From a virus (Duplodnaviria > Heunggongvirae > Uroviricota > Caudoviricetes): DNA of 14,173 nucleotides. Below the pieces are notes generated by a model. The model had not been told where the DNA came from and did no database searches. It was given only the letters and a program-made list of their open reading frames with translations. Positions 1 to 14,173 of this stretch are shown piece by piece. The stretch is from the IMG/VR virus record IMGVR_UViG_3300019487_000021, one strand, 5' to 3'. Both the position numbers and the translations under genes were made by a program. The first letter of the stretch is position 1; each line of letters starts with the position of its first letter.

Positions 1-1
1 G

Positions 2-97
2 AGTGATGGTCATGTTGACTTTCACCCTCATCCTGTTGAGAGTGTTCTTACTTTGATCAACGGAGATCAAGATGGATATCGCCAGACAAACCGCTGA
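2..97 (+). CDS. 3' end of a hypothetical protein (partial, runs off window start)
   Basis: Open frame from nt 2 (SDGHVDFHPHPVESVLTLINGDQDGYRQTNR*) to TGA 95-97, overlapping the RBS/start of the next ORF. Confidence 0.35.
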   Translation, partial: SDGHVDFHPHPVESVLTLINGDQDGYRQTNR

Positions 98-227
98 ACA
101 ACTCGCCCGCAAGATGGCTCGACAGGTGGTCCGCAAGGAACAACGTGCTTCGTGGTGGGATGGCAACAAGGATCGTGTCAACGTTCAACGGCGCGTGAAC
201 AAAACCATCGACTTCGTGGTGGCGTGA
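72..227 (+). CDS. small basic hypothetical protein (51 aa)
   Basis: GGAG upstream of ATG 72; MDIARQTAEQLARKMARQVVRKEQRASWWDGNKDRVNVQRRVNKTIDFVVA*; TGA overlaps next ATG (TGATG). Below the ORF-track length cutoff. Confidence 0.6.
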   Translation: MDIARQTAEQLARKMARQVVRKEQRASWWDGNKDRVNVQRRVNKTIDFVVA

Positions 228-397
228 TGGCTATTCGACACGGTGCTATCATCGTCTTCAAGCCTGAGATTTCGAAGGAAGAGGCCGACAAAGTGCTTGC
301 GGCCTTACTCAAGCATGAGCTCCTCGATGCGGCTTGGTCAAGTACTGTCGAATCATTCGACGACACGGTTGAAGGTCCCGTCTGGTATATTCCGTAG
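227..397 (+). CDS. hypothetical phage-type protein (56 aa, MAIRHGAIIVFKPE...GPVWYIP)
   Basis: Same frame as track ORF 152..397; start reassigned to ATG 227, which is coupled to the upstream stop. Confidence 0.72.
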   Translation: MAIRHGAIIVFKPEISKEEADKVLAALLKHELLDAAWSSTVESFDDTVEGPVWYIP

Positions 398-406
398 GAG
401 CCAACA

Positions 407-838
407 ATGCAAACTCTCCCTGCCGGTCAGTATTACGTCGGCGATCCATGTTATGTAATCGCCGATGAGAAATGGTCAGATTTTCTCGATGCATGGGATA
501 CGCAGCTTGGTCGAGACCACGATGGCCATCGCATCAGTGGTATTTTTGAGTTCGAGGGCCATCAAGTATTCGCAGGCTACACTGCGCATGGTGATGGAAC
601 ATTCGATCACTTTCCTGTCGACAGCGGAACAATCGGTGTTGTGCCTATTTCTCTTGTCTCAAAACGAAACATCAGCGAAGAAGGGCTGTGGGACTTCAAA
701 CAGATCGAGGAGCAAGGTCTCGGCGAATTCGTAACGTTTGATGAACCGTTCGAAGCTGATGAAGCTGAGGGAACATTCTACATCGGCGACATGGAAATCG
801 AAACCGACAACTGGTTTGATTTCGATTTCACCGATTAA
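407..838 (+). CDS. acidic hypothetical protein with YYVGDPCY and FPVDSGTIG motifs
   Basis: AGGAG RBS; 143 aa; GDPCY-type motif recalled from phage hypotheticals (DUF4241-like, tentative). Confidence 0.85.
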   Translation: MQTLPAGQYYVGDPCYVIADEKWSDFLDAWDTQLGRDHDGHRISGIFEFEGHQVFAGYTAHGDGTFDHFPVDSGTIGVVPISLVSKRNISEEGLWDFKQIEEQGLGEFVTFDEPFEADEAEGTFYIGDMEIETDNWFDFDFTD

Positions 839-840
839 CG

Positions 841-869
841 TTGACCTTTGACCCTATTTCGACGAGAAT
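841..869 (+). promoter_or_regulatory. sigma70-like promoter candidate
   Basis: TTGACC (841-846), 17-nt spacer, GAGAAT (864-869), in the gap upstream of ORF 912. Confidence 0.4.
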
Positions 870-911
870 GGTCCTCGTTGGTTCACACTTCATACTTTAG
901 GAGAAACAGTC

Positions 912-1559
912 ATGTCAGTGTTCAAGAAAGCTGCAGCGATCGAACCGAAGAAACCCGTCAAGAAGACCTCGAACAAGGAAGAGGTCACCATGCCTGGCCT
1001 TCGGCACTTCGCCGAACTCGATGCGCTGATCAAGGCCCTCGCCGCGATTCAAAGCACTCTGGACACGTCGCTTAAGGGTGTTGCTCTTGACCACTTCGTC
1101 GCTACTGCCAACGGCCGTAAGCCTGAGTCGTTTCGCGGTCTCGACGATGGTGCGAGCGCAAGCTTCGAATTGCGCAAACGTTCCAGCCGTTCGATTCTGA
1201 GCGAGGCCGAACTGGAACAGCTCGAACGCCTCGGCATCAAACCCGAGAAGAGCACGACCGTGCCGAAGATGTTTGGCATCAACCCGAAGTACTCTGCCGA
1301 CGAGACGCTGCTCGATAAAGTCTCGAGCGCGATCGAGAAAATCGTGCCGGAAGACTTCATCGTCGTGCAGGAAGAGAAGTCAAACTTCATCGTCGGTGAG
1401 TCCACGATGGAAGATGCATTCCGCAAAGGTGCGACTGCTGAGACCGTGCTGTTGGTTGGCACGCTGGCAATCAAGCCGAAGCTGGACGAGACTGACCTGG
1501 GCAAGATCATCGACTCCGTCCGCGGGCTCGTGGCTCCTGCTACCGACGTGATGGAATAA
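912..1559 (+). CDS. hypothetical protein (215 aa, Lys-rich N-terminus)
   Basis: TAGGAG RBS, long ORF with strongly biased C/G-ending codons; no family recognised. Confidence 0.88.
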   Translation: MSVFKKAAAIEPKKPVKKTSNKEEVTMPGLRHFAELDALIKALAAIQSTLDTSLKGVALDHFVATANGRKPESFRGLDDGASASFELRKRSSRSILSEAELEQLERLGIKPEKSTTVPKMFGINPKYSADETLLDKVSSAIEKIVPEDFIVVQEEKSNFIVGESTMEDAFRKGATAETVLLVGTLAIKPKLDETDLGKIIDSVRGLVAPATDVME

Positions 1560-1564
1560 CAACC

Positions 1565-1600
1565 ATCGAGAACCGGCTGAATGTTCAGCCGGTTCTCGAT
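1565..1600. repeat. perfect 17-bp inverted repeat (hairpin/cruciform)
   Basis: ATCGAGAACCGGCTGAA (1565-1581), TG, TTCAGCCGGTTCTCGAT (1584-1600); no clear U-tract on either strand. Confidence 0.85.
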
Positions 1601-1622
1601 CACGAAGCAAAAGGTAGTCATC

Positions 1623-2237
1623 ATGCAGTACAACTCGTACAGATACTTGTGGCCTCCTCGTCCGGAAACGAAAGTTCCTCGTGGTGCACTGACCTTCTAC
1701 GAAGGTCGCAAATGGGTAGCACAGAAAAAGAAGAACGGCACATGCACCGTGATCTTCACGAACGGTGAACAGGTGATCTTCAAAACTCGCCACGATGATG
1801 ATCACAAAATGTGGCAACCACAACTAGAACACATCGAGTTCTTCCGCCAAAATGGTGGAGAGAATGACACGTGGAATGTGTATGTTGGTGAGTTGTTGCA
1901 CAACAAGACCCAACATATCAAGAACCATCTGTACTTGTTTGACCAAGTTGTTCACGACGGTGAACAACTCGTCAACATGACGTTCGGTCAACGGCATCAA
2001 CTCCTCCGTCGTTTGGGTGGTGAGTTCAACGATGACTGCTATATGATTTCCCCGATTGTCTCGATCGCTCACTGCTTCACAACCGGCTTTGTCAAATTGT
2101 TCGACACGCTCAAAGCGGAAGATGAAGGCATTGTCCTGAAAGATCCAAACGCTTTGTTGAAGCCTTGCTACAAGGGAGATTCCAACGCTGGCTGGCAAGT
2201 AAAGAGTCGTCTACCGCACAAGAATTACAGCTACTAA
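1623..2237 (+). CDS. ATP-dependent ligase-type nucleotidyltransferase, adenylation domain only (no OB fold)
   Basis: Motif I QKKKNG (KxNG), III YVGELL, IIIa LYLFD, IV EGIVLK, V WQVK; the protein ends 10 aa after motif V. Start set to ATG 1623 (AAGG upstream) because track start 1581 lies in the hairpin. Confidence 0.78.
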   Translation: MQYNSYRYLWPPRPETKVPRGALTFYEGRKWVAQKKKNGTCTVIFTNGEQVIFKTRHDDDHKMWQPQLEHIEFFRQNGGENDTWNVYVGELLHNKTQHIKNHLYLFDQVVHDGEQLVNMTFGQRHQLLRRLGGEFNDDCYMISPIVSIAHCFTTGFVKLFDTLKAEDEGIVLKDPNALLKPCYKGDSNAGWQVKSRLPHKNYSY

Positions 2238-2247
2238 ATCTAAGCTG

Positions 2248-2276
2248 TTGATTAAACCCTGAAACACAAATAACAT
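2248..2276 (+). promoter_or_regulatory. sigma70-like promoter candidate
   Basis: TTGATT (2248-2253), 17-nt spacer, TAACAT (2271-2276), 7 nt before ATG 2284. Confidence 0.4.
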
Positions 2277-2283
2277 CAACAGC

Positions 2284-2709
2284 ATGAAAACCAAAACTCG
2301 CCAAATTCCCGAACTGGTGATCTCGATTCCGATCAAACCATCGACTTTCAAGGAAATCCTACAACCGGCAGAGGATGAGATAACAAGCCGCGAAATTCGG
2401 ATTGAAATTAGTCAAATGACTATCGCACAAAAAATCAAGCTTCTCCACGGACTCGTTCATCTTATTGAAGAGGAGGTGATTCGACTCATTCGCAACGAGA
2501 AATTCCGTGGCGCCTGGCAAGAGACGGTCGATTGGCTCTATGCCGGCGATTTTCGCAGAGGCTACACCGAATTGTTAACTGTTGAATCTCAGTTTAAACA
2601 GTTCGCTGTGGGCCTAGAAGGACCTCCACCATACGACTATCACTCTGTGTGTGTCGAACTATTTACCACAACACTTTTGGAGACTGCAAATGAACATCGA
2701 ACTGTCTGA
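2284..2709 (+). CDS. hypothetical protein (141 aa)
   Basis: Open frame filling the gap between neighbours; no SD motif seen. Confidence 0.72.
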   Translation: MKTKTRQIPELVISIPIKPSTFKEILQPAEDEITSREIRIEISQMTIAQKIKLLHGLVHLIEEEVIRLIRNEKFRGAWQETVDWLYAGDFRRGYTELLTVESQFKQFAVGLEGPPPYDYHSVCVELFTTTLLETANEHRTV

Positions 2710-3043
2710 ACAAGACGCCGAGACGATCGGCATCGCAATGTGTCACGAACTGTGGGAGGTTGATGAAGCAATCGAAACTCTTGAACACATGCGTGACGAA
2801 CATTCCGATTCATTTAACGAGGCACGTTCCAATGAGCTCAACGAATTCACCACCTATCGAACCAACCTCGAAGGCCTCCTCGAAAAGATCAGCAAGAAAT
2901 GGTTTGAAAATCTTCTTGCTTATCGCGAGTTTATTGGTAACATGGTTGTTCTGGAGCTTGATGAAGATTCCGAGCCAGCCGAGATCGGAGAATTCCTTCA
3001 CAAGTTTTTCATTGACGACAACACCTCAAACAAGCCTCACTAA
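2690..3043 (+). CDS. acidic helical hypothetical protein (117 aa)
   Basis: GGAG RBS before ATG 2690 (MNIELSEQDAETIG...); track start 2651 has no RBS. Confidence 0.8.
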   Translation: MNIELSEQDAETIGIAMCHELWEVDEAIETLEHMRDEHSDSFNEARSNELNEFTTYRTNLEGLLEKISKKWFENLLAYREFIGNMVVLELDEDSEPAEIGEFLHKFFIDDNTSNKPH

Positions 3044-3053
3044 GGAACCCAAT

Positions 3054-3269
3054 ATGTGGCTGCTTTATCTCGGGTTGTACATGAACTATGCAATCGTCAT
3101 TGACACGCCTGGTTTGCCAATTTCTGTTAACCTTGAAGTGCCCAAGGGCGAGAAGCCAACACACTCAACGTTGATATTTGGTTACAAAACTGAAGCAGAC
3201 TGCAGCGCAGCTCGTGAGGCTGCCAAAAAGCATTTCGATGTTCAAGGTCGCTGTGTGAAGGCAGAGTGA
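3054..3269 (+). CDS. hypothetical protein with hydrophobic N-terminus (71 aa)
   Basis: TAAGGA RBS before ATG 3054 (MWLLYLGLYMNYAIVID...); the upstream extension in the track overlaps ORF 2690..3043. Confidence 0.7.
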   Translation: MWLLYLGLYMNYAIVIDTPGLPISVNLEVPKGEKPTHSTLIFGYKTEADCSAAREAAKKHFDVQGRCVKAE

Positions 3270-3304
3270 TGAAAAAGTTCAATGCCAATAAGAAGAAAGT
3301 ATAA
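3269..3304 (+). CDS. 11-aa basic mini-ORF (MKKFNANKKKV)
   Basis: Starts in a TGATG overlap with the upstream stop and ends in a TAATG overlap with the downstream start. Confidence 0.3.
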   Translation: MKKFNANKKKV

Positions 3305-3474
3305 TGAAACTCGACTTCGGTGAGACGTCTGATGAACGGGATCAGCGCTTGGAAAAGTGGCACCGTTGGTTCGCGTGGTATCCCGTGCGCGCTGATCCGC
3401 ACGATTGGCGGTGGCTGGAATACGTGGACGGCTGCGAATACCGCGCGATCCAGGACCCGCCCGAAGCATGGTAA
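3304..3474 (+). CDS. Trp-rich small phage hypothetical (56 aa, WHRWFAWYPV...WRWLEYV)
   Basis: Hand-translated; the WFAWxPV...WLExV pattern is recalled from small phage proteins. Not in the track (<60 aa). Confidence 0.65.
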   Translation: MKLDFGETSDERDQRLEKWHRWFAWYPVRADPHDWRWLEYVDGCEYRAIQDPPEAW

Positions 3475-3602
3475 CCGCTGCGCCCCCTGCCCATCGTCGC
3501 GGTCTACTCGGAAGGCCAACTGGGCGGTCGGACGAGATGTGTTGACCCTCTAAGGGTTGTTGTGTATGCTGTCGTTTCCTTGCTACAGCCACCGAGGAAA
3601 TA

Positions 3603-4850
3603 ATGATCCCGTTCGACCCCACAAAAATCACGATTGATATCGTGCGTCTGAAAGCTATCTCCACCGCTCTTGGTGGTTCGATTGCCTATATCGACGAACA
3701 AAAATCCTTACAGGAAGGCCGCGACATCCTGAAACGAGTCGGGATTCCAATGTCGCTTGCTCGCTCGTTCATTGTGCGACACAAGAAAATGACAAAATAC
3801 CTCAAGGCGATCTACACTGCCATTGTTCGGTATGAAGGTCGTGTGATTGCGTTGGAACGCCATCCTCTTGCGGCACTCGGCAAACTTGAAGATGAAGGAT
3901 TGTTTGGCAAGAAACTGTGGACTCCTGATGTCCAGGACAACTTCGACAAGATCATCATTCCGTTAACGGTGTATTGCAACGATCGTACTTGGTTCTTCGA
4001 CGGTCGGTACATTTACACTTTTGAGAAAGACACGAAAACTGTTGTCGAACGATCTCAGTGGATGTCAAAAGACGGACATTTTCGTAAAGTCCATGCCGTG
4101 TCGATTGATCTGCAGGAGATGCAAAATAAAGAACGGCTTACTCCTGCTGCTCGCACGTGCCTTGCATTCGTTGCTGTGAATGGCCAGTTCGCCATTTCGC
4201 CTCCGATTTGGAAAGATGTCAGCGACATTGCGATCACGCAACGTCGCAAAGGTGGTCATGATGCCATTCAAGACGAAGATGAAACTGATCCAAACGATTT
4301 GCGGAGTGTGTCGGTTGAAAATTCGCTGCGTCTTGACCAGTTTGATAGCCACGACGTTCTGCTTGCAGTTAATCTCGGATTCGCTTTGAAGGCTGGTGTG
4401 GAAGTCGGTCGGATCTTCGGCTTCGAAGCAGTCGAGCCACTGAACTTACCTCGTCTGATGATCGAATTGCACACTGTCAATCTGCCAAATCTACCGAAAG
4501 AGATCAAATCGACGTACGACATTGGCTTGCGGTTCACCCATGCAATTGCATGGCTGTTGGGTTTGCAGCAACGTACGAACACTCTCGACAGCTATTTGAC
4601 GATTCGCAGTCTGTTGAAGTATCTGACAAGCAAAGGATTGTTCCGTCGAAACATCTTTGATGCAGAGCGTGTGTTCCAACCTGGCAAAGGCGTGAAAGAC
4701 ATCCCTCAGATCGCTTTGGACACGTTGAGAAAAGGCGACAAACAAGAGAGACTATCGTTGGCAGCTATTTTGGAAAAGGTTAAAACAATGCGTGCTCCAT
4801 CGAGCCATAAAATGACTAGCATCGGAACGTTGATGAACGAGGGCGATTGA
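3603..4850 (+). CDS. hypothetical protein (415 aa)
   Basis: GAGGA RBS; long ORF with phage-typical codon use; no motif recognised. Confidence 0.9.
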   Translation: MIPFDPTKITIDIVRLKAISTALGGSIAYIDEQKSLQEGRDILKRVGIPMSLARSFIVRHKKMTKYLKAIYTAIVRYEGRVIALERHPLAALGKLEDEGLFGKKLWTPDVQDNFDKIIIPLTVYCNDRTWFFDGRYIYTFEKDTKTVVERSQWMSKDGHFRKVHAVSIDLQEMQNKERLTPAARTCLAFVAVNGQFAISPPIWKDVSDIAITQRRKGGHDAIQDEDETDPNDLRSVSVENSLRLDQFDSHDVLLAVNLGFALKAGVEVGRIFGFEAVEPLNLPRLMIELHTVNLPNLPKEIKSTYDIGLRFTHAIAWLLGLQQRTNTLDSYLTIRSLLKYLTSKGLFRRNIFDAERVFQPGKGVKDIPQIALDTLRKGDKQERLSLAAILEKVKTMRAPSSHKMTSIGTLMNEGD

Positions 4851-4851
4851 C

Positions 4852-5049
4852 ATGTCCCTTGAAGAAGAGCTTCGATTGATCCTTTGGTTGGGACTGATCA
4901 GTGGCATGTTGATGGCTGCCGGTGCAATTGGATTTCTTTTTGTATCTGGTGCAGGTGGTTTTTTGGTGTTTGCGTTGGGTGGTGTTGTCGGCTTAGCTGC
5001 ACAACGATTCTACGCAGATGTTCGTTTCGTTCTGTTTCAAAAGGAGTAA
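4852..5049 (+). CDS. small membrane protein, two predicted TM helices (65 aa)
   Basis: Two Gly-rich hydrophobic stretches (LILWLGLISGMLMAAGAIGFLFV; GGFLVFALGGVVGLAA). Confidence 0.7.
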   Translation: MSLEEELRLILWLGLISGMLMAAGAIGFLFVSGAGGFLVFALGGVVGLAAQRFYADVRFVLFQKE

Positions 5050-5051
5050 CA

Positions 5052-5144
5052 ATGGATTTCAAAACTGAAACATTGGACCGTTCGTCAAAGATTACGTTGT
5101 GCACGGGAACTGTAATCGTTGACCAGATCGACGAACTAGAGTAA
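5052..5144 (+). CDS. 30-aa peptide (MDFKTETLDRSSKITLCTGTVIVDQIDELE)
   Basis: Strong AAGGAG RBS overlapping the previous stop; 3' part of track ORF 4884..5144. Confidence 0.5.
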   Translation: MDFKTETLDRSSKITLCTGTVIVDQIDELE

Positions 5145-5151
5145 ATTATCC

Positions 5152-5186
5152 AAACTCACCGATGTGACTCTGACAGAGGTGAGTTT
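5152..5186. promoter_or_regulatory. 9-bp inverted repeat with 17-nt spacer (hairpin or operator)
   Basis: AAACTCACC (5152-5160) / GGTGAGTTT (5178-5186), intergenic upstream of ORF 5235. Confidence 0.4.
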
Positions 5187-5234
5187 TAACCTTGAAGTAA
5201 ACTGTAATGTTGTTTAACAGAACAGGAGAAACAC

Positions 5235-6299
5235 ATGCAATTTGAGCTTATCCGCAACGCCAACGTTGAAGTGAAGAAGCTGATGACCGGAAAGAACAAG
5301 CCAGCGGCCATCATCACTGTCAACGACAAGTATCAACACGAGTTCTCCCCAAAGTCCCGAGTGTCCAAGCACCTCGAACTGATGGAGCCCACCGAGCTTG
5401 CTCAACGCTTGACTGGTGGTCACTACTTCTTTCTCGATGGTCAACTCACTCGTTTCCGTGACGGTTCGTACGGCAATGGGTTTGTGCACGATGACAAGAC
5501 CATCGAAGTCTTGATGGAAGTTATCGGCGCTCGGCCGGTCATTTCTCGATTCGGTCACCGCCCTGCTCGTCGGGACGAGGATCTCGACACAAAGATCGAA
5601 CTGCGCAAGTACTGGAGCGACCACAACATCATCGTGCCTGGCTACAATGCTGGTGGCGAGTTCAACTCGCGACTGTCGTTCGGTTGGGATCCGTTTGTCA
5701 AGACTGTCAACTCAACGTTCGAGCTGATGCGTCTGATCTGCACAAACGGTGCGATCGGTCTGACTCCGTGGCTGAATGCAAAGATCCCCTTGTTCAACCG
5801 TTGGCACGAACACCTCGACATCGCTTCGCGCCAGATCCAGAATCGTGTCAACGAGACTGTGGTTGATCGGGTACAACAGATGGCGATTGAACGTGCCTCC
5901 GTCGCTGACTGTCTGCTGCTCGAGCAGCACTGCCACGACCGTCTGTACTCTCCGACCGACAAGTCCGATCTGACTGATCGGGAACGTCTGCAAATGATTC
6001 TCGGCGCAGCGTCTCCTCGTCGACATCTGCAGGACTATTACACGGAGCAGTTGTTCCGTGATCGTGTGTTGGGAGCGCAAGTTCCTGCTCACCTTACGAA
6101 CTTCGACGTGTACAACCTCGCAACGGAGATCCGCAGCCACACGAACGAGTGCGCCAAGTCGTCGAACACTGCTCTCGACCGGATGGCAAATCGTCTAATG
6201 TTTGATGACGATCGCGACTACAGCGTGACGTCGATCGGTGCACCGAAGATCGCAGCGTTTAGCGATCCGGAGCGGGCATTCTTCGGTAAGATGCACTAA
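5235..6299 (+). CDS. DUF932/DUF945-like protein (354 aa)
   Basis: CAGGAG RBS; FELMRLICTNG matches the RLxCxNG signature of DUF932-type mobile-element proteins. CDS is secure, family call is moderate. Confidence 0.7.
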   Translation: MQFELIRNANVEVKKLMTGKNKPAAIITVNDKYQHEFSPKSRVSKHLELMEPTELAQRLTGGHYFFLDGQLTRFRDGSYGNGFVHDDKTIEVLMEVIGARPVISRFGHRPARRDEDLDTKIELRKYWSDHNIIVPGYNAGGEFNSRLSFGWDPFVKTVNSTFELMRLICTNGAIGLTPWLNAKIPLFNRWHEHLDIASRQIQNRVNETVVDRVQQMAIERASVADCLLLEQHCHDRLYSPTDKSDLTDRERLQMILGAASPRRHLQDYYTEQLFRDRVLGAQVPAHLTNFDVYNLATEIRSHTNECAKSSNTALDRMANRLMFDDDRDYSVTSIGAPKIAAFSDPERAFFGKMH

Positions 6300-7647: not shown

Positions 7648-8037
7648 CTACTTGAACACCCGTTTCTCAAGCCACCGATGGAACTCTCCAAGTTCGCCGC
7701 CGGACTCGTCGTACAGACGGAGCAACACTTTGTGTTGCTGCAAAAACAGCTGAACCAACTCTTTTGCCTTTGGGTAATGTCTCCAGTATTCAAGACTTAT
7801 CTGGACTTCGTCGATCTTATCCCAGAATACCGAATGTACGTTATTGAGTTTTCGCGCTACTTCGTCGGATGGACTGTACCTAGCAATGAGATCAGGTGAG
7901 GCGGTGAGGAACAAACCGAGTTTATGCTTCTTGCCGTATTCGAGCATGTCTCCGAGAAGATTGATATATTCGGTGTACAAGTGGTTGTATCGATGAATTA
8001 AAGCATCAATAATTTGTTGATTCCAAGGCTGGCTCAT
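7648..8037 (-). CDS. HRYxHL-family paralog A (129 aa)
   Basis: GGAGAG RBS; IDALIHRYNHLY; C-terminal YWRHYPKAKEL. Confidence 0.85.
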   Translation of the reverse strand: MSQPWNQQIIDALIHRYNHLYTEYINLLGDMLEYGKKHKLGLFLTASPDLIARYSPSDEVARKLNNVHSVFWDKIDEVQISLEYWRHYPKAKELVQLFLQQHKVLLRLYDESGGELGEFHRWLEKRVFK

Positions 8038-8099
8038 GTCGTTCTCTCCAACTTTATTTATCTGTAAATGTCGTTCTCTCCAACTTTATTTATCTGTAA
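8036..8099. repeat. perfect 32-bp tandem duplication containing TAAATA and the RBS of ORF 8037
   Basis: ATGTCGTTCTCTCCAACTTTATTTATCTGTAA at 8036-8067 and 8068-8099. Confidence 0.95.
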
Positions 8100-8102
8100 A
8101 TA
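8097..8102 (+). promoter_or_regulatory. TAAATA motif (T4-late-promoter-like core); also at 6808-6813(+), 8055-8060(-), 8087-8092(-), 10202-10207(-), 11425-11430(-), 13042-13047(-)
   Basis: The hexamer sits just upstream of the RBS/start in the sense orientation at each listed site; two sites reuse a TAA stop codon. Confidence 0.4.
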
Positions 8103-8119
8103 TGGGTTTGGAGTGAAAC

Positions 8120-8311
8120 ATGATCAAGCATCCTCTCACAGTAGGAACAAAGGTTGAAGCGTCACAAAAGACATGTGCCTGTTCTGGTGGTGGTAAGTAC
8201 AGAACCGTCACAGGTAAGATTCTTAAGACAATTGTCAATCAAAGCGGAACATGGTACTATCTCGATTCAGGGGCAACCGTTAAATCCGAGATGATTCGAC
8301 AGGTATTGTGA
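8120..8311 (+). CDS. small basic protein with CxC, possible SH3/KOW-like beta fold (63 aa)
   Basis: GGAG RBS; VGTKVEA...TCACSGGGKYRTVTGKI...WYYLDSG. The fold call is inference. Confidence 0.75.
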   Translation: MIKHPLTVGTKVEASQKTCACSGGGKYRTVTGKILKTIVNQSGTWYYLDSGATVKSEMIRQVL

Positions 8312-8317
8312 GGCAAA

Positions 8318-8911
8318 ATGTCAACATTATCAATTGCAATGATTGTCGTCCTGTGGTTCTTGTTAGGTGCGTTCGTGCTGTTGTGGCGATATCGCCGCAC
8401 AATGGAAGGTTGTCTTGTACATCTTCGTCAGAAAGAAGCATGCGTTCGAATCGGCACGTTGAATGTGGAGTACTACGTCAAACGTATTGAACAAGAATTA
8501 CCCAACTACCAACTCCTTTGGCCAATGCTTTTTGGGTTTGCGGTTGGCGATACTGTTCTTGCCTGGTTGATTCTTCCTCACACTGAAACACCCAATGTAT
8601 TATCGATTGGAACCGCTTGTTTGATTGCCACAGTTATAACTCGTGCCTTGACAATCGATAGCGAATGGGCAATTGAACTACTCGCAAAATTCAATGATAG
8701 AACGTTAATGGCAAATGCTGCTCGTCGGGGACTTGAAGAACTCCGTCCTGACCTTGAACAAGCGCTTGGCGAACTTGAACAGTCAAAGGCCGATCTGGAA
8801 AAAATTACGAAAGAGTTTGATGAAGAGCTAGAGAAGATTATCAAATCTATCTCTGATGTCGAGGCCTTAAAGAAAGACAAACGAGACTTAAAGAAAGACA
8901 AACGAGACTAA
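8318..8911 (+). CDS. membrane protein, about 3 TM segments plus C-terminal coiled coil (197 aa)
   Basis: GAGG RBS; hydrophobic stretches near residues 4-23, 66-87 and 94-110; heptad-like charged tail. Confidence 0.85.
   Translation: MSTLSIAMIVVLWFLLGAFVLLWRYRRTMEGCLVHLRQKEACVRIGTLNVEYYVKRIEQELPNYQLLWPMLFGFAVGDTVLAWLILPHTETPNVLSIGTACLIATVITRALTIDSEWAIELLAKFNDRTLMANAARRGLEELRPDLEQALGELEQSKADLEKITKEFDEELEKIIKSISDVEALKKDKRDLKKDKRD
8866..8909. repeat. 21-bp in-frame tandem duplication (LKKDKRD x2) at a gene 3' end
   Basis: CTTAAAGAAAGACAAACGAGA at 8866-8886 and 8887-8907, plus CT. Confidence 0.92.
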
Positions 8912-9142
8912 TTGTACATTCTGCATTGGAATCAGCTGTAACTTCAACGTCTGCTTGTTCCAAATCACAATCATTCCTAACACATCGGTTGTTTCAACGA
9001 CTTCCAACATTGAGTCAAGCTGAGCAATCGGTAGCGGCGATGATGTAATTGTATTGCCGTTTTTTAACTCAACAGCAATTAGAAATCCCTTCGCGTCTGC
9101 TGCAGCGGTAGAGTACGTTGCTAAATCCTTGTAGTATGTCAC
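8888..9142 (-). CDS. hypothetical protein (84 aa)
   Basis: ATGA-type coupling with the upstream gene; overlaps the convergent ORF 8318..8911 by 24 nt. Confidence 0.72.
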   Translation of the reverse strand: MTYYKDLATYSTAAADAKGFLIAVELKNGNTITSSPLPIAQLDSMLEVVETTDVLGMIVIWNKQTLKLQLIPMQNVQLVSFVFL

Positions 9143-9573
9143 TTGTCCATCCTTGCAAAACTACGGAGGGTGCGTTCAAGGTCCTCCTTTGCATAAGCAT
9201 ACGAGACTGCAAAGTGTTTTAGCACCTTCACGCGAGGGTATTGTGGATCAACGTAAAACTGCAATGGGGACATGTTGGTCAGTTTGTAGACTTTGGTCAT
9301 TAACTCCTTTACATTGCGGTCAATATTGCGAATTGAACCGTCCGTTGTAGCTTGCATCTCAACAGGTGTGATTCGTATGCGAATGTAGTTGTGAACAACT
9401 ACACCTGGCGGTGGAGAAGCGCGCCACTGCTTGTATTCATCCTTGCCGTCGCTTAGCACCATCAACAAATGTAAACACCAATTCGCTAAATATACACAAC
9501 GGTTGTGTAGCCAAGTGATATCCCGAGGGAGTTTGGTTCGTTCAACATACTGTACAGTTTCTTCTAGTCGCAT
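9139..9573 (-). CDS. hypothetical protein, possible divergent HRYxHL-family member H (144 aa)
   Basis: WLHNRCVYL aligns loosely to ALIHRYNHL; C-terminal QYPRVKVL resembles [YF]P[KR]xxEL. Confidence 0.75.
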   Translation of the reverse strand: MRLEETVQYVERTKLPRDITWLHNRCVYLANWCLHLLMVLSDGKDEYKQWRASPPPGVVVHNYIRIRITPVEMQATTDGSIRNIDRNVKELMTKVYKLTNMSPLQFYVDPQYPRVKVLKHFAVSYAYAKEDLERTLRSFARMDK

Positions 9574-9582
9574 TGACGGTAC

Positions 9583-10179
9583 TCACATGGCGTGCAGCGT
9601 GTGCTCTTTCTTGAACTTTTCAATGTACTCTGGATTGCGCTTGCCCTTTCGAAACTTTGTTAAACCAACGTTATAGGCATGCAGTGTCTTCCACTTGTTC
9701 TTCAATAGATTGTGATATCCTTTAAGGATGTCGACGCCGTACTTGATCTGCTTCTCGATGTCCTGGAGTTCGGCTGTTTCGATCCCCCACACACCCGGAC
9801 GAACTTGCATTAACCCTCGTGCAGGATCTCGCTTCAAACTAGAGACGGCGTGAGGATTGAAACTGCTTTCAATTCCAATCACCGACAAAATGTCATGTGC
9901 GGTTGGAAACGTTGGATCTGCGTGTTTGTGTGCAAGGGCAACAATCTCGTACGCACGCTTCCGATCAATCCTGTACCGTTCGGCAATTTCCGCTGCTGTT
10001 TCGTGGAACATCGTATTGATCCGTGGATGAATGTGACGAACTTGTCCCGCTGCTGCCAACCCACTTGGGCGATGTGGAGTCTCAGCTGGAGTACTAAGTG
10101 TTGCTAGTCCCAACGCACCTGCTGCTGCCGCCTGTTTAAGACTGATTTCGTCAAGTTGCTGCAAATCGTTGAGTTTCAT
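9583..10179 (-). CDS. SLT-domain lytic transglycosylase (GH23-type) with Ala/Gly-rich N-terminal leader
   Basis: Catalytic IESSFNP, GLMQV and AYNVG motifs; CAGGA RBS. Confidence 0.92.
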   Translation of the reverse strand: MKLNDLQQLDEISLKQAAAAGALGLATLSTPAETPHRPSGLAAAGQVRHIHPRINTMFHETAAEIAERYRIDRKRAYEIVALAHKHADPTFPTAHDILSVIGIESSFNPHAVSSLKRDPARGLMQVRPGVWGIETAELQDIEKQIKYGVDILKGYHNLLKNKWKTLHAYNVGLTKFRKGKRNPEYIEKFKKEHTLHAM

Positions 10180-10210
10180 TGCTTTTCCTGTAGATTTATT
10201 GTATTTATTC

Positions 10211-10297
10211 GTCTATAAGTCGTTGTAGTCTATAAGTCGTTGTAGTCTATAAGTCGTTGTTCGTCTATAAGTCGTTGTTCGTCTATAAGTCGTTGTA
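10211..10297. repeat. 5-copy tandem repeat, core GTCTATAAGTCGTTGT plus A (17 bp) or TC (18 bp)
   Basis: Units of 17,17,18,18,17 bp starting at 10211, 10228, 10245, 10263, 10281. Confidence 0.95.
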
Positions 10298-10655
10298 GCT
10301 GTTCAACGATTCTCATCAACTCTTTCCACAGTGTCACGACCCTGTTGACTTGATAAAACGGCAACCATGCAATTAGGTCGGAGGTGCTCCCCACCGGCCT
10401 GGTGAACGAGTGTGGCGTGACCGAGACAATGTTGCTGTGATACTTACCTATCAGTTGACTAACATCAAGAGACACTGGGCTACCTTCATACAGTTTGACC
10501 TCACGACTGCCTCTAACGAGCAGAGTGTATTGGTCAACACCATGTTTCGCTTTGCATTGATCACGCATCTTTGTGTGAAGGGTTGTGAACTCTGAGAACA
10601 AGTGTTGATATCGATGCATCAGCGCATCAACCGCTTGAAATAAGTGTGCATGCAT
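10230..10655 (-). CDS. HRYxHL-family paralog B (141 aa)
   Basis: VDALMHRYQHLFSEF; C-terminal TLWKELMRIVEQLQRLID. Start moved to ATG 10655 because the track extension overlaps ORF 10670..11056; the AGGAG abuts the ATG, so the start is uncertain. Confidence 0.8.
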   Translation of the reverse strand: MHAHLFQAVDALMHRYQHLFSEFTTLHTKMRDQCKAKHGVDQYTLLVRGSREVKLYEGSPVSLDVSQLIGKYHSNIVSVTPHSFTRPVGSTSDLIAWLPFYQVNRVVTLWKELMRIVEQLQRLIDEQRLIDEQRLIDYNDL

Positions 10656-10669
10656 CTCCTGTACGCCCT

Positions 10670-11056
10670 TTAGTAGAGATGATATGCCGATGGTTGCAAC
10701 AAGCGCACGTCCTTCTTGCACAATGCAATCGCTTGCGTTCGTAAAGCAACGTATGCTGCGGCGAGCTCCTCGCTCTTTGGAAACTGTTTCCACACATTCA
10801 AAGAACCTGGGCATCGAGGGAGATTAAATGCTCGGACGAGGTACTCCTGACAGCCATCGTCGTTCACCCACATCATTGTCTCGTGCTCGAACTCGATTGA
10901 CGTCGACCGTCGTCGTAGCCAGCGGTATAGCCGTTCTCGAAGGTGGGTCGCTTCCTCCCACGCTGTCTGTTCTGTGGAGAGATCCTGCAAAATCTCCCAT
11001 AAGTGCTTGTAGCGGTGAACCATTGAGTCCAATGTACGCAAGTCAGACAGCTTCAT
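10670..11056 (-). CDS. HRYxHL-family paralog C (128 aa)
   Basis: LDSMVHRYKHLW; C-terminal VWKQFPKSEEL. Confidence 0.85.
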   Translation of the reverse strand: MKLSDLRTLDSMVHRYKHLWEILQDLSTEQTAWEEATHLRERLYRWLRRRSTSIEFEHETMMWVNDDGCQEYLVRAFNLPRCPGSLNVWKQFPKSEELAAAYVALRTQAIALCKKDVRLLQPSAYHLY

Positions 11057-11405
11057 GTTTTTGCTTCCTTCGTTCTAACTGGGCGCACACGTCATGTCCG
11101 GCCATCTTCCATCGATTGTGCAAATCAATCAGATGCTGCTTGTGTGGGTAGTCGATGTAAACACCGACGGTTTGCAACGCCGCCCATTCTCGCCACCAAA
11201 GTTCTCGAGGAACGGCTTTGAGGTGGCGAATGTGCCATAGCGCAAGAGCTTCTTGACACGTATCGGTCCAATACAAAGGAATTAGGTACGATCTTGGGTT
11301 GTGTGGTCGTTGTGCAGCCCACTGGTACATTTTGTCTAATGCATCGTTGAGAAGCTCGTATGCGTGTATAAATCTGTGGACTGTGGCAAGCGTCGAATTA
11401 TCCAT
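11043..11405 (-). CDS. HRYxHL-family divergent paralog D (120 aa)
   Basis: AGGGG RBS; VHRFIHAYELL; C-terminal YIDYPHKQHL. Confidence 0.8.
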   Translation of the reverse strand: MDNSTLATVHRFIHAYELLNDALDKMYQWAAQRPHNPRSYLIPLYWTDTCQEALALWHIRHLKAVPRELWWREWAALQTVGVYIDYPHKQHLIDLHNRWKMAGHDVCAQLERRKQKHEAV

Positions 11406-11427
11406 AAATTACCCCTGTTTGAGGTAT

Positions 11428-11775
11428 TTACGCCACTTTTTGTGTAACGACAGGATCTGTTCCGAGAACGTCGTGAGCAAGGAGTTGAACGAGTAGGCAG
11501 TACTGTGACCAATACTGTCGAACAACCGAAGCTCCGTCAATATTTTCATAGACAACAGCGTGTGGACCCCACTTACTATAGTCGTCTACTGCCACTTGCA
11601 TCAGATGTTCCATCCCTTGTGGGAGAGCGAGATAAACTTCTGTGTCAAACATTGCCATTTCGTTCATCACCAATCGCTGATCTAACATTGCATCCTTCAG
11701 CAGCCCAGCGACGTGTTGCATTCTGTGGATCAATGCACGTCGCTTGTTTAGTTCAGAGAAGTGTTCAAGACTCAT
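11428..11775 (-). CDS. HRYxHL-family divergent paralog E (115 aa)
   Basis: RALIHRMQHV; start at ATG 11775 or GTG 11787. Confidence 0.78.
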   Translation of the reverse strand: MSLEHFSELNKRRALIHRMQHVAGLLKDAMLDQRLVMNEMAMFDTEVYLALPQGMEHLMQVAVDDYSKWGPHAVVYENIDGASVVRQYWSQYCLLVQLLAHDVLGTDPVVTQKVA

Positions 11776-12274
11776 TTGGTGACACAAGCAAGTCGTGTGA
11801 ATCGTTGGTGAAGATCATGAAACAGTGCATCGCGTTGCCGACCTTGATTTGGTCAATGAATACACGAGCACGAACATCGTACTTGTACACGCAGTATGGG
11901 TCAATTGGAAATGAACAACAATACACGACTCCATCAGGTGCAAAACATGGTGTTTGAATCATCGGAGAGGTGTAATACAAAAGAACAAACGCTCCAATCG
12001 CATCATCATAGTACACACGTGATGGCAAATACCTGGCGAGTCTTACACTGTGAATCTCATACAGATCAACAACCACGTGTGATTCACGATTGGGGCACAC
12101 GCACCGAACTTTCATTGGCGTCTTGGGGATCAAATCGACATACTCGTCTGCATCATCAGGAATGTCGAGCTCCAGTGCAATCAGCTCGATTTTAACATCG
12201 TAGTCGATCTCGAGGGTTGATGACGGAGGTTGATCGTCCGCCATCACGATGTCTGCTGGGACGATTTTGCTCAC
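11765..12274 (-). CDS. Cys/Tyr-rich hypothetical protein with acidic N-terminus (169 aa)
   Basis: GTG start with GGGA RBS; fills the gap between neighbours. Confidence 0.78.
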   Translation of the reverse strand: MSKIVPADIVMADDQPPSSTLEIDYDVKIELIALELDIPDDADEYVDLIPKTPMKVRCVCPNRESHVVVDLYEIHSVRLARYLPSRVYYDDAIGAFVLLYYTSPMIQTPCFAPDGVVYCCSFPIDPYCVYKYDVRARVFIDQIKVGNAMHCFMIFTNDSHDLLVSPNES

Positions 12275-12297
12275 GACTTATCCCACGATTTCATAAC

Positions 12298-12549
12298 CTA
12301 TCCTCTCTTTTGAACTCGTGATGCCAAAGCCTCGCGTGCAGAGTCGATACCGCGCAATTGGTACCACTCATCCATTGCATCGGACTCGTAGCGAACGATT
12401 GCCATCAAACGGCGAACCATCTTGCGCCATTCCTTTGTCATTCTTTCCGAAGAATCCTCTTGCAACATCAGCTTGAGAAGGTTGGCGTGCTTGTCGAGAT
12501 TGTTTTTGATATCGTTGAAATTTCGTTGTTCGAGAACGACGGTTTCCAT
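12298..12549 (-). CDS. helical hypothetical protein (83 aa)
   Basis: AAGGAG RBS; TAATG coupling to the upstream gene. Confidence 0.8.
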   Translation of the reverse strand: METVVLEQRNFNDIKNNLDKHANLLKLMLQEDSSERMTKEWRKMVRRLMAIVRYESDAMDEWYQLRGIDSAREALASRVQKRG

Positions 12550-12779
12550 TATTTGGAACTCCTTTGCGGCTTGAGAGAAACTGAAGCCGTGGCGCCGTTG
12601 CAGACTGGAGAGACCGCTCCTGTTTGGGGATCGCGGCGGAGGTCTAGCTTGAGCTTGACATCATGAATAGGTACGGTATCAACGACATTTGCTCCATCGT
12701 TGTACTCATCCTTGATATACTCAGCAATAGCTTGTTCGACTTCTCTGTCACTGATTTCGACGACTCGATATGACCTCAT
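12549..12779 (-). CDS. hypothetical protein (76 aa, MRSYRVVEISDREVEQAIAEYIK...)
   Basis: AAGGAGG 5 nt before ATG 12779, favoured over track start 12833. Confidence 0.78.
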   Translation of the reverse strand: MRSYRVVEISDREVEQAIAEYIKDEYNDGANVVDTVPIHDVKLKLDLRRDPQTGAVSPVCNGATASVSLKPQRSSK

Positions 12780-12879
12780 TTCCGCCTCCTTCTTCCTTCG
12801 CACTACGTACTTCACAACGTGCTCAATGATCATTGTGCCAACCCAGAAGCGACCCAGCTATGGTGCTGGGCCATTATTT

Positions 12880-12945
12880 GACGGGGTGGCAGAGTGGCAA
12901 TGCACCGGACTAGCACTCCGGTTGCCAGGGGTGAAGCCCCGGCCA
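12880..12945 (+). pseudogene. truncated class-II-tRNA-like element (5' acceptor strand, D arm, anticodon arm with AGC, long variable arm; no T arm or 3' acceptor strand)
   Basis: GACGGGG-TG-GCAGAGTGGCAATGC-A-CCGGA-CTAGCAC-TCCGG, then hairpin GCC(A)GGGG-TGAAG-CCCCGGC; no GTTCRA follows. Confidence 0.55.
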
Positions 12946-12993
12946 CACAATCATTCCGACTATCACCAGCGGAATCAACACATCATCGCTCAT
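12910..12993 (-). CDS. 27-aa hydrophobic peptide, possibly a disrupted small membrane gene
   Basis: MSDDVLIPLVIVGMIVWPGLHPWQPEC*; AGGG upstream and TAAATA at 13042-13047. Confidence 0.3.
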   Translation of the reverse strand: MSDDVLIPLVIVGMIVWPGLHPWQPEC

Positions 12994-13070
12994 TGTCGTA
13001 ACCCTAATTCAAACAGTTACCACATGATGACACTAATCGCTTATTTAGGGTAAAAGCAACAGAAATCAAA

Positions 13071-13511
13071 TCAAACATAGGATTCTTGATCGATCATTGC
13101 AATCAATGTTCGCAAAATATCCTGCAACTGGACGGTGGTTTCCTTCAACTCACTCAGTCGGTTGTACTCTAGAAAAATCCAAAACGACGTGTTGATCATC
13201 AATCGGAAATTCAGCCGATCTGCAACACATGCAACTTGTTCCAACACTCCAAACCGAGTATTTGTACCGATCTTAGCCCCGGGAATTTTCCATAATGGCA
13301 CACGATTATTTGTTCCTTGGTCGACAGCTCCATCACTTGCCCAAGGGAGACCAGTCTGCTTTTCATACGAACGCTGCATTTCCAACTTCATCGTTACGAA
13401 TTCGTCAAACAAATGCTTGTACCGGTGCGCCAACGCTCTAACAGCATTGTTCTGTACGAGGATTTCCAATGTCCCCTGTTGCAATGTCATCAATGTCTTA
13501 CTGTGCTTCAC
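13071..13511 (-). CDS. HRYxHL-family paralog F (146 aa)
   Basis: VRALAHRYKHLFDEF; ends LIAMIDQESYV. Confidence 0.85.
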   Translation of the reverse strand: MKHSKTLMTLQQGTLEILVQNNAVRALAHRYKHLFDEFVTMKLEMQRSYEKQTGLPWASDGAVDQGTNNRVPLWKIPGAKIGTNTRFGVLEQVACVADRLNFRLMINTSFWIFLEYNRLSELKETTVQLQDILRTLIAMIDQESYV

Positions 13512-13518
13512 AACGTGC

Positions 13519-14010
13519 TCATTGATCGATCATTGCAATCAATTCGTGAGTTGCCGTCCATGCCAACTTGTATTCTACGCAAGTTTGGCGGTCGGCAATC
13601 ATCGCCAGTTGTTCCATGATGCGAAATAGTTTGTGCCAAAGGACAAACAACTCTTGATTTCGTGGAAATCCAACAAGATACTCATGTCCAAACTCCGCAG
13701 GCGCACCTGGCGAACTTGGACTCCACTGTGAAAACACACTTGCACACCGTCCGTGCAAACGAGAAGCTGTTTTGATCACGTGTTCCGCACTATTCGGGAG
13801 TGTGAACATTCCATGGACTCCAGCAACGCTGGCCTTGTTAGACGAAATGACCATTTTTGATTCTACTATCAAGTCGAGCACAAGGCGGTTGACATGATCG
13901 AAATAATGACGTAATGCCAGCACTACCGGTGTATATTCCTGTTCAACCTGCACTGGAACATCTAAGTCGGCGATAGGTAAGTCGGCGATAGGTATGAGTT
14001 GTGATGACAT
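13519..14010 (-). CDS. HRYxHL-family divergent paralog G (163 aa)
   Basis: VLALRHYFDHV; C-terminal GFPRNQELFVLWHKLFRIMEQL; ends LIAMIDQ. Confidence 0.82.
   Translation of the reverse strand: MSSQLIPIADLPIADLDVPVQVEQEYTPVVLALRHYFDHVNRLVLDLIVESKMVISSNKASVAGVHGMFTLPNSAEHVIKTASRLHGRCASVFSQWSPSSPGAPAEFGHEYLVGFPRNQELFVLWHKLFRIMEQLAMIADRQTCVEYKLAWTATHELIAMIDQ
13963..13994. repeat. 15-bp in-frame tandem duplication (PIADL x2) near a gene 5' end
   Basis: TAAGTCGGCGATAGG x2 plus TA. Confidence 0.9.
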
Positions 14011-14053: not shown

Positions 14054-14173
14054 AAACCGATACAAACCGATACAAACCGATACAAACCGATACAAACCGA
14101 TACAAACCGATACAAACCGATACAAACCGATACAAACCGATACAAACCGATACAAACCGATACAAACCGATAC
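14054..14173. repeat. perfect 10-bp tandem array (AAACCGATAC)x12, truncated by the window end
   Basis: 12 identical units counted from 14054 to 14173. Confidence 0.97.

Follow-up and report, generated by a model that had tools for sequence, protein, structure and literature searches.

What is encoded by the run of small genes at one end of an uncultured giant-phage contig: orphans that merely look alike, or copies of one domain? Giant phages carry hundreds of unnamed genes, among which many-copy, diverged families are the likeliest to matter in phage-host conflict or virion biology. We analysed a 14,173-nucleotide stretch of the IMG/VR record IMGVR_UViG_3300019487_000021 (the window), which is the final 14 kb of a 351,809-bp metagenome contig (ENA ERZ27251176, k141_439466). 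An earlier note made from the letters alone had proposed that 7-8 diverged paralogs, here A to H, lie in this window. Eight minus-strand open reading frames (ORFs) were confirmed, with all of the N- and C-terminal motifs quoted for them. Judged by the comparisons described below, A to G are homologous, i.e. a real paralogous family expanded by duplication as the note had it, and H is only a probable member. The family is best described, on the alignments, as one colinear domain: a unit about 110-120 residues long whose centre is weakly constrained.

Each candidate served as the query of an iterative hidden Markov model (HMM) search of all 209 ORFs found by six-frame translation of the window, the database size being fixed at 500. 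A, B, C and F matched one another in the first pass (E values of about 2e-5 to 3e-3), G matched B (E 2e-3), and E and D were recruited after iteration (E 4e-4 and 2e-3, respectively); no decoy among the 209 ORFs was ever matched. Each protein was also split after the first of its two conserved motifs, and the N- and C-terminal parts were scored separately as z-scores against shuffled sequences. The N-terminal parts gave z-scores of 7-14 within A, B, C and F, 6.5-7.2 for the pairs C-E, C-D and E-D, and 5.3 for G-E. The C-terminal parts gave 8.5 for B-G, 5.5 for A-E, 4.9 for A-C and 4.7 for F-G. Since the parts were scored separately, the two ends of the proteins match independently. We note that a single borderline z-score is unreliable, as the control pairs C-SLT and G-SLT, formed with the neighbouring SLT transglycosylase, reach 5-6 by chance (G-SLT 5.3). 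Finally, hhalign aligned the profile of the core (A, B, C, F) with that of the periphery (G, E, D) at E 2.2e-4, with a probability of 45%; the alignment has 97 colinear columns and takes in both ends.

The conservation is concentrated in two motifs. Motif 1, A-[LM]-x-H-[RY]-[YFM]-x-H-[LVA], lies in the N-terminal helix and occurs six times; the looser form [AS]-[LM]-x-H-R-[YFM]-x-H additionally captures C, and none is expected from shuffled sequences. Motif 2, [YF]-P-[KRH]-x-[KEQ]-x-L, has 5 matches in 28,342 six-frame residues versus 0.08 expected. All five fall within the candidates (A, C, D, G and H), and the motif is absent from approximately 78,000 residues of related loci used as decoys; E, B and F have a degenerate version at the same place. 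The distance from the second His of motif 1 to motif 2 is 69-82 residues in A, B, C, D, E, G and H, and the variation in total length resides in the N-terminal leaders (9-34 residues before motif 1) and in the C-terminal tails. In other words, the order of the unit is a long N-terminal helix with His-x3-His, a diverged stretch, and then an aromatic-Pro motif that opens the C-terminal helices.

Between the middles (45-58 residues) no similarity could be detected (mean z 0.13), except in the pairs E-G (5.3) and C-H (3.6). Their description as unalignable therefore stands, but the suggestion that they are hypervariable inserts presented by a scaffold does not: as the motif-to-motif distance is held at 69-82 residues, the middle appears to be a diverged core of constrained length rather than an insert of free length, i.e. 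a weakly constrained part of the common domain.

Could the likeness have arisen by chance among unrelated small helical ORFs? The pairwise identities among the members are just 12-27%, the hhalign probability is just 45%, and there are no outside homologues from which deep profiles could be built. On the other hand, the HMM searches matched no decoy, motif 1 was seen seven times where shuffling predicts zero, the similarities of the N- and C-terminal ends are independent of each other and the motif spacing is conserved. We regard chance as extremely improbable; by these comparisons it is essentially excluded for A-G and is left as an explanation for H only.

H (9139-9573, minus strand, 144 amino acids) is never recruited by the HMM, and its hhalign comparison with the family is not significant (E 0.48). 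Motif 2 (YPRVKVL) is present in it at a distance usual for the family (77 residues), and of motif 1 only the second His is kept. It aligns colinearly with C, with a z-score of 5.3 for the full length and 3.6 for the middle, the former equal to that of the G-SLT control. H is probably a divergent eighth member, as far as alignment can tell.

The products of A-G are 115-163 amino acids long, and all the genes lie on the minus strand. A (7648-8037) has both motifs. B (10230-10655, 141 amino acids) has the motif 1 DALMHRYQHLF and a degenerate sequence, FYQVNRV, at the position of motif 2. C (10670-11056, 128 amino acids) carries SMVHRYKHLW and FPKSEEL, and its start overlaps the 3' end of D by 14 nt; D (11043-11405, 120 amino acids) carries ATVHRFIHAY and YPHKQHL. 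E (11428-11775, 115 amino acids) has RALIHRMQHV as motif 1 and a Cys in place of the Pro of motif 2 (YWSQYC), and its nearest relative is G, the middle included (z 5.3). F (13071-13511, 146 amino acids) begins with GTG and combines the motif 1 RALAHRYKHLF with a degenerate motif 2. G (13519-14010, 163 amino acids) has LALRHYFDHV and FPRNQEL, shares the C-terminal LW..L.RI.EQL helix with B, and has a 15-bp tandem duplication in its N-terminal leader. Two starts were corrected, that of B to the ATG at 10655 instead of 10814 (the longer form overlaps C) and that of E to the ATG at 11775; both match the independent gene calls on two other assemblies. When codon usage was compared with that of the larger genes of the window, the annotated frame was the best of all frames, antisense included, in 8 out of 8 cases. 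The products are small, soluble and predicted to be all-helical, with no obvious transmembrane or signal segment, and in net charge they span about -5 to +7.

In motif 1, the conserved His, Arg, Tyr and Leu residues are written with differing synonymous codons in the different members. As the codons have changed and the residues have been kept, the comparison indicates that the copies are old duplicates whose residues are held by selection on the protein, i.e. that they are under purifying selection. The common LIAMIDQ end of F and G, previously listed among the shared protein features, is a different matter. It results from a perfect 22-nt DNA repeat on the minus strand, found at the 3' end of G (13522-13543) and identically at the 3' end of F (13086-13107) and encoding IAMIDQ in both, and hence it is no evidence of ancient protein conservation. 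A 25-nt copy of the G/F junction, 92% identical, lies at 12807-12831, ahead of the gene at 12549-12779. The 22-nt identity, which stands out between paralogs that are otherwise saturated with change, and the junction copy must come either from a recent exchange or from constraint on an element of the DNA or RNA; there is no enrichment of the palindrome TTGATCGATCAA that lies within the F/G repeat. For the ORF given a length of 94 amino acids, which extends into the region 12779-12833, the most likely start is Met19 (76 amino acids) with AAGGAGG just upstream, in agreement with the JGI and ENA gene calls. With this start the junction copy falls in the leader of that gene, where it may be a remnant of a lost family member or act as a shared regulatory element.

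That no known family is recognised, as stated in the earlier note, was borne out by the profile libraries and the sequence searches. The A/B/C/F profile returned only self-matches from 1.84 billion representative proteins, and so did the seven-member profile from a collection of 5.8 billion proteins. Homology searches with B, and one that allowed for longer proteins, likewise gave nothing beyond the proteins of the window itself. No outside relative was found by pattern scans of IMG/VR and the JGI metagenomes or by a degenerate full-motif DNA pattern in IMG/VR, nor by tblastn searches of the GenBank phages with A and B (E values up to 1). Pfam, PHROGs, NCBIfam, PADLOC and the PDB sequences gave nothing above noise, the lowest library E value (0.004) corresponding to 18 bits versus a curated cut-off of 30.6 and belonging to the discarded long form of B. 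Note that members as diverged as G, E and D would miss significance in searches against billions of sequences.

The AlphaFold2 model of A, calculated with the family as the alignment, is all-helical with long antiparallel helices (mean predicted local distance difference test score, pLDDT, 62). The helix at residues 5-37 and the helices within 89-127 have a pLDDT of about 75-80, and the middle is below 50. The helical character proposed in the earlier note is supported by this one usable model, in which confident helical ends surround a low-confidence middle; the model of H (pLDDT 52) has a compatible order of elements. Fold searches with the A model in the PDB, BFVD, a wide PDB set and the AFDB clusters returned generic helical hairpins, none above background. 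Any helical model would be expected to score in this range, so that the matches imply neither relatedness nor function. In the ESM Atlas, A is present at a pLDDT of 0.47 and has no usable neighbours.

How, then, could such a family work? The best candidate for a functional site is His-x3-His, both residues of which are invariant in the seven members, usually within A-L-x-H-R-Y-x-H-L, and would lie on one face of the helix beside a conserved Arg and an aromatic residue. The patterns of HEPN (R-x4-6-H), zincin (HExxH) and zinc anti-sigma (H-x3-C-x2-C) proteins do not fit the conserved H-R-Y-x-H. The explanation that we prefer as a whole, and to which we would give an even chance, is a lineage-specific, late-expressed helical family in which the ends form a frame with a common site and each copy has its own specificity. 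The copies would have arisen through tandem duplication, the N- and C-terminal helices would pack together as the frame of the domain, and the His/Arg/aromatic cluster would bind either a metal or a partner that all copies share. Each paralog would then owe its own specificity to the diverged centre. The most specific form of this proposal, namely a novel helical domain with a His-x3-His/Arg/aromatic site for a metal or one partner, a diverged centre for different host or phage targets and eight late-made copies, is doubtful as it stands; if true, it would provide diversified phage effectors with a new chassis, and the copies might be packaged in the virion.

Alternatively, the copies may share one redundant function exerted through His-x3-His, e.g. 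as small metal-binding or regulatory helical proteins, with the middle as the least constrained part of the fold. The invariance of the two His residues in seven members is what one would then expect, as is a middle that is conserved in length and not in sequence; furthermore, the motif 1 helix of the core members is conserved almost throughout, not on one face alone. Redundancy by itself hardly explains why 7-8 intact copies should be kept under purifying selection after synonymous change, and the spread of net charge from about -5 to +7 suggests different surfaces, so we think a single shared function unlikely.

Near-identical copies of the window exist on one 100-kb JGI contig and on one Logan contig. 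These other assemblies depart from the window at 0-5 bases, all outside the family region, which is accordingly invariant across three assemblies from at least two samples. The public runs listed as containing the stretch, two of DNA and none of RNA, are cave metagenomes, and each may be its source. The neighbours with a recognisable function are a ligase-type nucleotidyltransferase, a calcineurin-like phosphoesterase and the SLT transglycosylase, all other neighbours being orphans. Relatives of the SLT protein with 47-49% identity were found on four IMG/VR contigs, one of which encodes a T4 gp15-type tail sheath stabiliser (Pfam E 2e-38). This relative places the phage among the T4-related giant phages; it is an uncultured T4-related jumbo phage of about 352 kb. 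The 354-amino-acid and metallophosphatase neighbours, used as queries, returned no related loci.

In the related contigs (L003, positions 1-5644, and L004) the SLT gene stands alone and in the opposite orientation, inside a T4-like tail/baseplate module with the gp15-type stabiliser and a likely sheath gene, and no small-gene cluster surrounds it. The six-frame translations of the SLT-linked contigs contain no family member, no motif 1 and no motif 2. Given that the relatives have no small-gene cluster at this place, the array of the cave phage looks, on this comparison, like a lineage-specific addition. We have, in other words, a lineage-specific expanded family: 7-8 diverged paralogs in the window, only self-matches outside, and none in the SLT-linked relatives.

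The sequences ahead of the genes point to late transcription. Just upstream of A there is an exact 32-bp tandem duplication (8036-8099, minus strand), each copy of which contains the late-promoter-like GATAAATA as well as a GGAGAG ribosome-binding site. TAAATA is also found at 11425-11430 on the minus strand, at the stop of E and 25 nt upstream of the start of D, where it resembles a promoter for D-C-B. Six of the nine occurrences of TAAATA lie at most 60 nt upstream of a start on the same strand (p 2e-6); A (where it occurs twice), D, SLT and the gene at 8120 on the plus strand have it 23-28 nt ahead of them. The consensus of T4 late promoters, TATAAATA, is seen in the related contigs ahead of the likely tail sheath gene, next to which lies the gp15-type gene, and ATAAATA stands before the SLT orthologue as well as before the large structural gene adjacent to it. 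By analogy with T4, we infer that A, D-C-B and SLT-H are probably late genes. A, D-C-B and the adjacent SLT lysin operon would then be transcribed from T4-type late promoters, and the proteins would be active late in infection, or be produced for the following one, instead of serving early host takeover.

Products made for the next infection bring to mind the internal proteins of T4. IPI, IPII and IPIII of that phage carry a short capsid targeting peptide (about 10 residues) at the extreme N-terminus, which is removed by the prohead protease (PMC3012670). If the members of A-H were virion-internal or ejected proteins of this kind, the N-terminal helix would target them to the prohead and the diverged rest would be anti-defence cargo for the next cell. 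The setting is similar, i.e. a phage that is T4-related through its SLT-linked relatives, late-promoter-like motifs before A, D and SLT, and small diverse proteins with a conserved N-terminal element. The architecture is different: motif 1 begins 9-34 residues into the protein, behind a variable leader instead of at the very N-terminal end, and no prohead-protease cleavage site of the Leu/Ile-x-Glu type is conserved after it, such a sequence being nearby only in C (LWE) and G (IVE). Moreover, the C-terminal third is also conserved, which a targeting-peptide model does not need. For these reasons we see a role as internal proteins as quite unlikely.

Another proposal, close to the main one of the earlier note, is that the genes encode early effectors of anti-defence or host takeover that an arms race has diversified. 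Small orphan proteins in a tandem array, with diverged centres and in an accessory region full of ORFans, would suit such a role, and the lineage-specific expansions of jumbo phages have been linked to biological conflicts (PMC7824862). The late-promoter-like TAAATA before A, D and SLT fits poorly with early action, as this motif is common to SLT and the structural genes of the relatives and so indicates late transcription. In addition, there is no match to PADLOC or to a known anti-defence family, and the family region, being the same in the three assemblies, gives no sign of ongoing diversification. Early effectors are in our view decidedly unlikely.

Several points weigh against the late-expressed family with a common site and a specific centre that we prefer. 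The divergence of the middle could be explained by weak constraint without any specificity, and conservation of the whole motif 1 helix would suit a buried fold core as well as a binding site. The promoter interpretation rests on a 6-mer and the analogy with T4, and no TAAATA was found upstream of G-F. The case for H is made by one motif with its spacing and by a single pairwise alignment. Furthermore, both structural models are of low to moderate confidence, so that the packing of the helices and any metal site are predictions that they leave unproven. The value of the family is at present limited, as it comes from one uncultured phage and its function is inferred only. Nevertheless, it is cleanly defined by two motifs at a fixed spacing, it is free of relatives in the searched collections and it has signs of selection, which makes it a target for structure and expression work.

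The domain is new; the tandem expansion of small domains is already known in giant phages. Bacillus phage G has about 35 zinc-ribbon copies as well as expansions of Myb-type helix-turn-helix (HTH) domains (Iyer et al. 2021, PMC7824862). As in these jumbo-phage expansions, many diverged paralogs of a small domain are present in one giant phage genome and are confined to a lineage. The phage G expansions are, however, recognisable as zinc ribbons or HTH domains, whereas the domain of the cave phage matches no known family by sequence, and by fold the model of A gave nothing above background; its 7-8 copies lie within one 6.4-kb stretch.

The neighbouring genes have some features of their own. 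The SLT protein (9583-10179) has a Gly/Ala-rich, weakly hydrophobic segment near its N-terminus, which is also present in the relatives and resembles that of a signal-anchor-release endolysin. The gene at 8318-8911, on the strand opposite SLT, encodes a product that, as read from its sequence, apparently has about three hydrophobic segments and a charged tail; together, the two genes could be a lysis cassette. The first ten residues of C (11027-11056) and of the SLT protein (10150-10179) are nearly alike, MKL-S/N-DL-R/Q-x-LD, with an N-terminal z-score of 6.3. This likeness may be due to chance or to a small exchanged 5' segment.

The end of the window, which is also that of the contig, consists of at least 12 perfect copies of the 10-bp unit AAACCGATAC (14054-14173), and the ENA, JGI and Logan assemblies all terminate inside or near this array. 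It is either the genome terminus or a repeat that breaks the assembly, and the gene array may continue past it. Short in-frame tandem duplications are unusually dense in the window: a 17/18-bp variable number tandem repeat at 10205-10299 writes the C-terminus of B (EQRLID repeats), the 15-bp duplication in the leader of G is located at 13963-13992, and a 21-bp duplication is found at 8866-8907, at the 3' end of the membrane-protein gene 8318-8911.

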